This document shows positions 54,140 through 54,174 of a DNA stretch of 64,000 bases, one piece after another. The stretch is from positions 86,002-150,001 of the IMG/VR virus record IMGVR_UViG_3300035152_000026, one strand, 5' to 3'. A program made the translations under genes and the position numbers. The stretch is from a virus. The stretch's first letter is position 1. The number at the start of each line of letters is the position of its first letter. The notes beneath the pieces were generated by a model. That model searched no databases and was not told where the DNA came from. It was given only the letters and a program-made list of their open reading frames with translations.

Positions 54140-54174
54140 CTGGAATGTTGGCTCGATAGCTTGTGAATCGAGCC
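54140..54174 (+). repeat. solitary diverged copy (27/36 identical) of the 36-bp array repeat from 16-1165; forms an 8-bp stem hairpin GGCTCGAT...ATCGAGCC
   Basis: TCTGGAATGTTGGCTCGATAGCTTGTGAATCGAGCC vs CCCGGAATGCTAGCTCGATGGCTACTCAATCGAGAC. The substitutions are compensatory and extend the stem. Confidence 0.5.

Follow-up and report, generated by a model that had tools for sequence, protein, structure and literature searches.

A diverged solitary CRISPR repeat in the tRNA array of a phage that carries a Cas12m-like system

Solitary CRISPR repeats have already been found in viruses, where some of them act as RNA anti-CRISPRs. Viral solitary repeat units (SRUs) and the RNA anti-CRISPRs derived from them (Racrs) were described by Camara-Wilpert et al. 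(2023; PMC10651486). Among the type V effectors, Cas12m binds DNA without cutting it, and the PAM reported for GoCas12m is 5'-TTN (PMC11013384). Here we describe a diverged CRISPR repeat in a 64,000-nt stretch of viral DNA (IMG/VR record IMGVR_UViG_3300035152_000026, positions 86,002 to 150,001; the whole stretch is referred to as the window). Like the viral SRUs and Racrs, it is a single repeat-like unit in a phage genome away from the cas genes, its hairpin has been kept, and judging from the surrounding genes it lies in a presumably transcribed non-coding stretch. The molecule has phage-type gene content and a large tRNA array, which places the repeat on a virus or mobile element. The SRU comes from the same repeat family as the Cas12m-like type V array that the phage itself carries.

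The parent CRISPR array and its effector

The window starts inside a CRISPR array; the start of the array lies outside the window, directly after a Cas12m-like gene. Contigs that share the ORF at 231-563 (L001-L003) were used to see upstream of the window. The effector gene is a 527-aa ORF (P0017; L002 1968-3551) immediately upstream of window position 1, and its TAG stop codon falls inside the GCTAGC of repeat 1. The effector N-terminus carries a TnpB-like motif (VYKYGARP...RLGRQYYN), and a CxxC...CxxC zinc ribbon is present. The only Pfam match was a Cas12f1-like TNB domain at 26.6 bits (cut-off 26.3). With an AlphaFold model of the effector (pLDDT 82), the best Foldseek matches were the Cas12m2/Cas12m structures 8hhl, 8hio, 8hhm and 8pm4 (E 5e-20 to 5e-17) at TM ~0.6 and ~17% identity, followed by TnpB and Cas12f. 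At the sequence level no Cas12m match appeared, as the PDB sequence search returned zinc-ribbon matches only (E of at least 0.02).

The family of the effector, as yet unnamed, comprises 39 protein clusters (480-530 aa). In every relative inspected the CRISPR array begins at the 3' end of the gene, and no adaptation genes were present in the loci seen. The RuvC-II motif of the family reads V-I-K-[D/N/K/S] (K-N in this effector) vs. hhhE-D in TnpB and Cas12f. With the RuvC-II glutamate replaced, members of the family may be DNA binders that do not cleave. The effector family is arguably a more novel object than the SRU itself, and the parent system, with its compact phage-encoded Cas12m-like effectors of ~500 aa, may interest makers of DNA-binding tools.

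The consensus repeat of the window array is CCCGGAATGCTAGCTCGATGGCTACTCAATCGAGAC, and the array contains eight full 36-nt copies together with truncated copies (Table 1). The array is interrupted by a 110-aa ORF (231-563, no Pfam match) and by a short Cys-rich coding stretch (within 199-634 and 948-1079); ORFs between CRISPR repeats are unusual. A tandem duplication at 601-725 and several truncated repeats were also seen. An alignment of 18 real repeats from six lineages revealed a conserved shape, consisting of a G, a 6-bp stem, a 9-nt loop whose first base is G, and a 3' AC left unpaired. Positions A7, G13, C16, G20, G32, A35 and C36 are invariant in these repeats, none of which pairs position 12 with 36 or 13 with 35. 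Pairing in the 6-bp stem is complete (100% of cells), and five of the six pairs show both-side changes; the slid controls gave 14-43%. The both-side changes across lineages show real compensatory evolution between repeat lineages.

Spacer content varies between samples at the cas-proximal end. L001 and L003 exceed L002 by three repeat-spacer units immediately downstream of the gene, and L021 carries different proximal spacers and one older spacer in common with L001. L021 comes from a sibling phage with the same repeat, and its newest spacer (L021 1947-1982) matches a protospacer in the window (Table 1) that lies inside an ORF with a T5orf172/MUG113 domain (19622-21154). One of the two protospacer mismatches is at guide position 2 and may be an escape mutation. 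The effector gene, the spacer turnover and the sibling spacer match together identify the repeat as a true CRISPR repeat. We concluded that the array is a genuine CRISPR array, and that the phage-borne Cas12m-like system to which it belongs is directed at related phages, this one among them. The initial annotation had suggested that the repeat functions as a structured element beyond its part in CRISPR; given the adjoining Cas12m-like gene, the spacer turnover and the sibling spacer match with its TTG flank, this was not supported.

Truncated, duplicated and inverted repeats are common in this lineage. In the contig L019, inverted repeat copies at 1084-1119 (+) and 1523-1558 (-) flank an ORF beside a truncated effector N-terminus. 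A second mini-array was found in L028 (8673-8954), where it and the main array are 1.7 kb apart and on opposite strands. In L027, whose effector is 49% identical, one short array (11514-11841) contains repeats with differing, mutually compensated stems (TGCAAC/GTTGCA, CGCAG/CTGCG, CCCAAC/GTTGGG and CGCAGC/GCTGCG) and loops of 9-13 nt. An inter-repeat segment of this array has a GGTTCGATTCC motif that is tRNA T-loop-like.

The solitary repeat and its surroundings

The SRU has the sequence TCTGGAATGTTGGCTCGATAGCTTGTGAATCGAGCC and is 75% identical to the best array copies (27 of 36 positions). The runner-up 36-mer in the remaining 62.7 kb, with both strands considered, reached 22/36 against the array repeat. 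The top score in 200 dinucleotide shuffles was 26/36, and none of them reached 27/36. The exact pattern GCTCGAT-N9-ATCGAG occurs in the window in the array and at 54151 only. A covariance model built from 13 window-lineage repeats (R1) matched the SRU over the full model length at 20.2 bits (E 3.8e-4), with 9.4 bits (E 0.54) for the best other non-array match. The family-wide repeat model (R2) gave 20.1 bits (E 9.6e-4), also over the full model length, with the runner-up at E 0.14. The SRU is the sole significant extra repeat copy that the covariance models detect within the window. Its R1 score is lower than that of the repeats in L026 (23-30 bits), a different phage with a 76% identical effector. 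The initial annotation had reported a segment between tRNA-Gly and tRNA-Lys with 75% identity to the array repeat, and both the shuffles and the covariance models bear it out. The element is real, and its start, which had been placed at 54140, is one base late; the true start is 54139. The proposed label of solitary repeat unit is also apt, since the element is homologous, diverged and in single copy away from the array. That it is a homologous, solitary and degenerate repeat of the phage's own CRISPR system is secure.

No second repeat was found at spacer distance from the SRU, and the tRNA array contains no other covariance-model match. The array is 53 kb away and the cas gene ~54 kb. Further diverged copies, a possibility raised in the initial annotation, did not turn up with the covariance models in ~70 kb of the genome, a span that takes in ~4 kb beyond the right end of the window (L036) and 3.5 kb on the left side of the array (L002). 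Apart from the inverted mini-array in L028, no further copy was detected in the ~100 kb examined around the effector genes of relatives. The flanks of the SRU have no similarity to the array flanks or spacers. The SRU is identical in two other assemblies (L005 and L007), which is uninformative. A 16-nt segment, CTAGCTCGTTGGCTAT, at 49258-49273 (-) inside the ORF 49240-49674 matches repeat positions 10-25 at 15/16 positions; ~0.03 such matches are expected by chance, and the second stem arm is absent.

Table 1. Window coordinates of the SRU, its neighbors in the tRNA array, and the features of the parent CRISPR system
Feature	Position	Strand	Basis or remark
CRISPR array, part within the window	15..1162	+	8 full repeats; truncated repeats at 601-615, 802-818, 926-947 and 1139-1162; contains ORF 231-563
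Protospacer of the newest L021 spacer	20233..20268	-	34/36 match; 5' flank TTG at 20269-20271
Sigma-70-like promoter match, TTGACA-16-TATTCT	53661..53688	+	consensus match; only one in 53.0-59.5 kb
tRNA-Gly(GCC)	54055..54128	+	upstream neighbor of the SRU
tRNA-Gly/tRNA-Lys spacer, 112 nt	54129..54240	+	carries the SRU
Predicted 7-bp hairpin	54132..54149	+	minimum-energy fold; AACGUUC pairs with GAAUGUU of the SRU 5' part
SRU, diverged CRISPR repeat, 36 nt	54139..54174	+	identity to array repeats and covariance-model matches
5' stem arm GGCTCGAT	54150..54157	+	minimum-energy fold; first two bases paired in the SRU alone
9-nt loop AGCTTGTGA	54158..54166	+	alignments A2 and A3; first base A vs. 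G in 18/18 real repeats
3' stem arm ATCGAGCC	54167..54174	+	invariant 3' tail AC changed to CC, base-paired
Pseudo-spacer, 38 nt, GC ~45%	54175..54212	+	directly 3' of the SRU
Predicted 10-bp hairpin	54213..54237	+	just before tRNA-Lys
tRNA-Lys(CTT)	54241..54313	+	downstream neighbor of the SRU

The minimum-energy fold of the SRU is predicted to form an 8-bp stem, GGCTCGAT/ATCGAGCC, at -11.2 kcal/mol; the predicted fold energies of the array repeats range from -6.8 to -8.4 kcal/mol. The hairpin has thus been lengthened to 8 bp by two added G-C pairs, in agreement with the initial annotation. The description of the substitutions as compensatory did not hold up. The six pairs (12 bases) of the core stem are unchanged, and the differences fall at 9 of the 24 other positions. 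A12->G and A35->C are single stem-extending changes, each of which makes a new G-C pair with a pre-existing base (C36 and G13, respectively). The pairs 12-36 and 13-35 are formed in one of the 19 family sequences, namely the SRU. Two family-invariant bases are missing from it (G20->A and A35->C), and G13 and C36 are sequestered in the extra pairs. The GGAATG of the 5' part is fully kept. The canonical repeat ends next to the guide in an unpaired ...G-AC, and the SRU ends in a paired CC.

Among 20,000 simulated neutral derivatives with nine substitutions, 4.1% were as stable as the SRU and 1.4% left the stem untouched; 0.09% had both extra pairs in addition. The substitution pattern in this single copy suggests selection for the hairpin. 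The signal is weakened because loops and flanks outpace the stem between real repeat lineages as well; since the stem is the slowest-evolving part there, much of the stem conservation in the SRU could predate its departure from the array. A role as a terminator had also been proposed. The hairpin is followed by TCTGGTAATCG with no U-run, and the terminator scan made no call, so an intrinsic terminator was rejected.

The SRU begins 10 nt after tRNA-Gly(GCC) and ends 66 nt before tRNA-Lys(CTT), on the same strand as the tRNAs. ARAGORN and Rfam gave no match to a tRNA-like or other RNA element in 54129-54240, even at E up to 1. The hairpin at 54213-54237 was considered as a degenerate second repeat and rejected, as it has no covariance-model match and no sequence similarity. 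The fold of the whole Gly-Lys spacer is marginally better than that of shuffled sequences (z = -1.73, 10/200). The guide-like sequence after the SRU was searched for targets. The window and the fetched loci contained no match of at least 12 nt beyond chance, GenBank phages gave no match at E up to 1, and IMG/VR had no exact copy of an 18-mer. Between the sigma-70-like promoter match (Table 1) and the SRU, the plus strand has no terminator-like site. Its sense orientation in a tRNA-operon spacer means that the SRU should be co-transcribed with the tRNAs.

The tRNA array comprises ~40 tRNA and tRNA-like genes, of which ARAGORN called 32 in 53.9-58.8 kb. Neighboring tRNAs are mostly separated by 0-15 nt; the other long gaps hold cloverleaves missed by ARAGORN, HNH ORFs, or a GAGCGGGTGGAAGGCCCGC-type hairpin. 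This G+C-rich hairpin, GAGCGGGTG[G/C][A/G]AGGCCCGC, is present in three gaps (~55840-55860, 56045-56065 and 56381-56400), and ATTTGTT follows the first of them, which was marked as terminator-like. The missed cloverleaves are located at 54317-54405, 55480-55550, 55948-56020, 56559-56628 and 56776-56920. Among them are two CAU-anticodon-like units and a Tyr-like tRNA whose variable arm is long; Rfam recognized some of the cloverleaves, and the others were identified by their fold only. Two HNH endonuclease ORFs are found within the array (54627-55136 and 57771-58319).

Relatives were found via homologues of the CYTH protein encoded just upstream of the tRNA array (L024, 77% identity; L025, 70% identity). 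The 169-aa ORF in the tRNA array was useless for synteny because it belongs to a widespread HNH-type family, with the best homologue 58% identical. Synteny with L024 and L025 extends up to 53.64 kb and resumes at ~62.56 kb; other genes replace the tRNA island there, and neither tRNAs nor a repeat copy was found at the island position in these two relatives. The island (53660-62560), which consists of the tRNA array and an SNF2 helicase, is lineage-specific. Elsewhere in the window, an 868-aa ORF at 45486-48092 (+) encodes a major-vault-protein shoulder and repeat domains (Pfam MVP_shoulder, E 3e-30) and is kept in L005 and L024. A family A DNA polymerase at 31979-34993 (-) has an N-terminal domain of the uracil-DNA-glycosylase superfamily; it is 24-31% identical to GenBank phage proteins among the top matches listed, and all are <60%.

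A repeat-pattern scan of IMG/VR gave no match. In the JGI metagenome collection the same scan found two related contigs (L019 and L021) and three chance matches in coding regions (L018, L020 and L022), and in GTDB genomes one chance match in a Phycisphaerales MAG. A phage tRNA array in IMG/VR (L032) has a tRNA-Gly(GCC) that shares a 25-mer with that of the window. A weakly repeat-like stretch in the gap behind this tRNA, CCCGG-ATGCGGTCTCGATG...TCGAGAAC, was considered as a repeat copy and rejected as not significant. Of random 85-nt windows, 2.4% reach its alignment score of 18, other stretches of L032 score better, and the covariance model gives it 7.3 bits.

Origin and possible roles of the solitary repeat

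Starting from the directly observed homology, position, orientation, hairpin and invariant-base loss of the SRU, and from the CRISPR nature of the parent array, we favor the reading that the SRU is a stray repeat that was moved by recombination, is transcribed with the tRNAs and persists as a plain hairpin independent of Cas; our confidence in it is about evenly balanced. Recombination would have copied a repeat into the lineage-specific tRNA island. The copy would then share the transcript of the tRNAs and remain in the spacer RNA after tRNA excision. The two added G-C pairs destroyed the unpaired 3' AC, and given the loss of the AC tail and G20->A, the SRU is probably no longer a normal crRNA scaffold. 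It would now be a Cas-independent fossil, a rather stable RNA hairpin that presumably does not bind Cas. At most it would give the spacer RNA a stable hairpin, like others elsewhere in the tRNA array.

We read the SRU as a fossil because two invariant bases have been lost, the 3' tail is buried and there is no detectable target, and because the element is lineage-specific in a lineage littered with repeat debris. Several observations run counter to this reading. There are zero changes in the 12 stem bases vs. nine in the 24 others, and a 112-nt non-tRNA spacer has been retained in an otherwise tightly packed tRNA array. A sibling array with the same repeat targets this phage, which provides a motive for a decoy. 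Cas12m crRNA keeps ~30 nt of the repeat (PMC11013384), and GGAATG is intact in the SRU.

It is possible, and we hold this tentatively, that the SRU RNA is bound by the Cas12m-like effector as a decoy or as a fixed guide. RNase P cleavage at tRNA-Lys and 3' maturation of tRNA-Gly would free an RNA of ~110 nt. As a decoy it would tie up the effector in the manner of an RNA anti-CRISPR or "extraneous crRNA" and blunt the attack by siblings with the same repeat; as a fixed guide, TCTGGTAATCGAATAGCTGA... would direct the DNA-binding effector to silence a gene of the host or of a competitor. The sense orientation in a tRNA operon, which is probably highly expressed, is consistent with such a role, and this context would allow clean excision. 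The preserved hairpin, the intact 5' GGAATG and the sibling phage that targets this phage point in the same direction, although the two invariant single-stranded bases lost from the SRU (G20A and A35C) and the 3' tail locked in the stem beside the would-be guide argue against it. There are precedents: RNA anti-CRISPRs occur among the viral solitary repeats (PMC10651486), and in a small tracrRNA-free phage Cas12 system one repeat is all that a guide requires, and extraneous crRNAs can also sequester Cas (bioRxiv 10.64898/2026.04.20.719267). The effector, with K-N in RuvC-II, has a fold closest to that of Cas12m, a non-cutting DNA binder (PMC11013384). However, a decoy would titrate the phage's own effector too, searches for a pseudo-spacer target came up empty in the window, the loci fetched, GenBank phages and IMG/VR, and none of the relatives examined has the element. 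A natural tRNA-flanked CRISPR RNA, bound by the effector and serving as an anti-CRISPR against siblings or as a hard-wired silencing guide, is rather doubtful. If true, it would be a natural counterpart of the synthetic polycistronic tRNA-gRNA design in phage-vs.-phage CRISPR warfare.

We consider it unlikely that the hairpin was exapted for processing or stability of the tRNA precursor with no link to Cas, for example as an exonuclease barrier or as a landmark for the endonucleolytic separation of tRNA-Gly and tRNA-Lys. The stem-strengthening changes would suit such a use, as would C10->T, which improves the second predicted hairpin, the two further hairpins in the same spacer, and the GAGCGGGTGGAAGGCCCGC-type hairpin in three other array gaps. 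However, the whole-spacer fold is marginal, most tRNA junctions in the array lack any hairpin, the element exists in a single copy only, and an 8-bp stem is too short for RNase III. Very improbable, in our judgment, is a tracrRNA-like anti-repeat made from the minus strand, 75% complementary to the crRNA repeat and pairing with pre-crRNA. Anti-repeats typically show imperfect complementarity of ~75%, as would be the case here. Many small TnpB-like Cas12 proteins do need a tracrRNA (bioRxiv 10.1101/2025.01.20.633832), but Cas12m, the closest fold, is tracrRNA-free (PMC11013384) and the repeat has its own covarying hairpin. Moreover, the tRNA operon around the SRU is on the plus strand, the cas gene is 53 kb away, and no minus-strand promoter match was found in 53.0-59.5 kb. 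Chance resemblance without shared descent is the explanation to which we give the least weight, close to none. Unrelated coding sequences in very large databases do score similarly or higher (L022 at 23.2 bits; L018 and L023), but within the 64-kb window the match has an E value of ~4e-4 to 1e-3, 0/200 shuffles reach 27/36, and the match is full-length, same-strand and intergenic with the stem in register.

Comparison with described systems

The T4 species 1 and 2 RNAs are non-tRNA small RNAs in a phage tRNA cluster, and polycistronic tRNA-gRNA arrays are a synthetic design. The SRU resembles both in being part of a tRNA-flanked non-tRNA RNA, for which release by tRNA processing is predicted here. 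In the small phage Cas12 systems of the Cas12r type, one repeat plus arbitrary sequence can give an effector-bound RNA (bioRxiv 10.64898/2026.04.20.719267), as the SRU might. The Cas12r repeat is the canonical terminal repeat of its array, whereas the SRU is diverged, 53 kb off and altered in its 3' tail. CreA/CreR and crlRNAs also consist of a degenerate repeat and a fixed pseudo-spacer outside the array (bioRxiv 10.1101/2024.12.27.630466). They are located beside cas genes or targets and have partial complementarity to promoters, whereas no complementary site was found for the SRU in the sequences searched.

The parent system resembles type V-M in the effector fold, the small size (527 aa), the absence of adaptation genes in the loci seen and a repeat that forms its own hairpin. 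The TTG flank of the protospacer fits the 5'-TTN PAM of GoCas12m, and the RuvC-II residue is atypical in both (PMC11013384). Unlike type V-M, the effector shows ~17% identity with no sequence-level Cas12m match, is phage-encoded and has its stop codon inside repeat 1. Its RuvC-II motif has K-[D/N/K/S], by which non-cleaving DNA binding is hinted at here.

Like a Racr, the SRU mimics the repeat of a system aimed at this phage, as indicated by the L021 spacer. Unlike the Racrs, it copies the phage's own array and not a host system, and it has no promoter of its own and resides in a tRNA operon; tRNAs are unmentioned in PMC10651486. It also lacks two family-invariant bases, and Racr-like binding or inhibition is putative here. 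If the effector binds the SRU RNA, this would be a novel means of producing and timing a CRISPR decoy or fixed guide; a tRNA operon would give strong expression and ready-made processing. If it does not, the SRU is an example of how CRISPR repeats scatter and decay in phage genomes. What is unusual compared with the solitary repeats described so far is that the stray repeat copies the phage's own array, that it sits in a tRNA operon, and that relatives aim the same system at each other.
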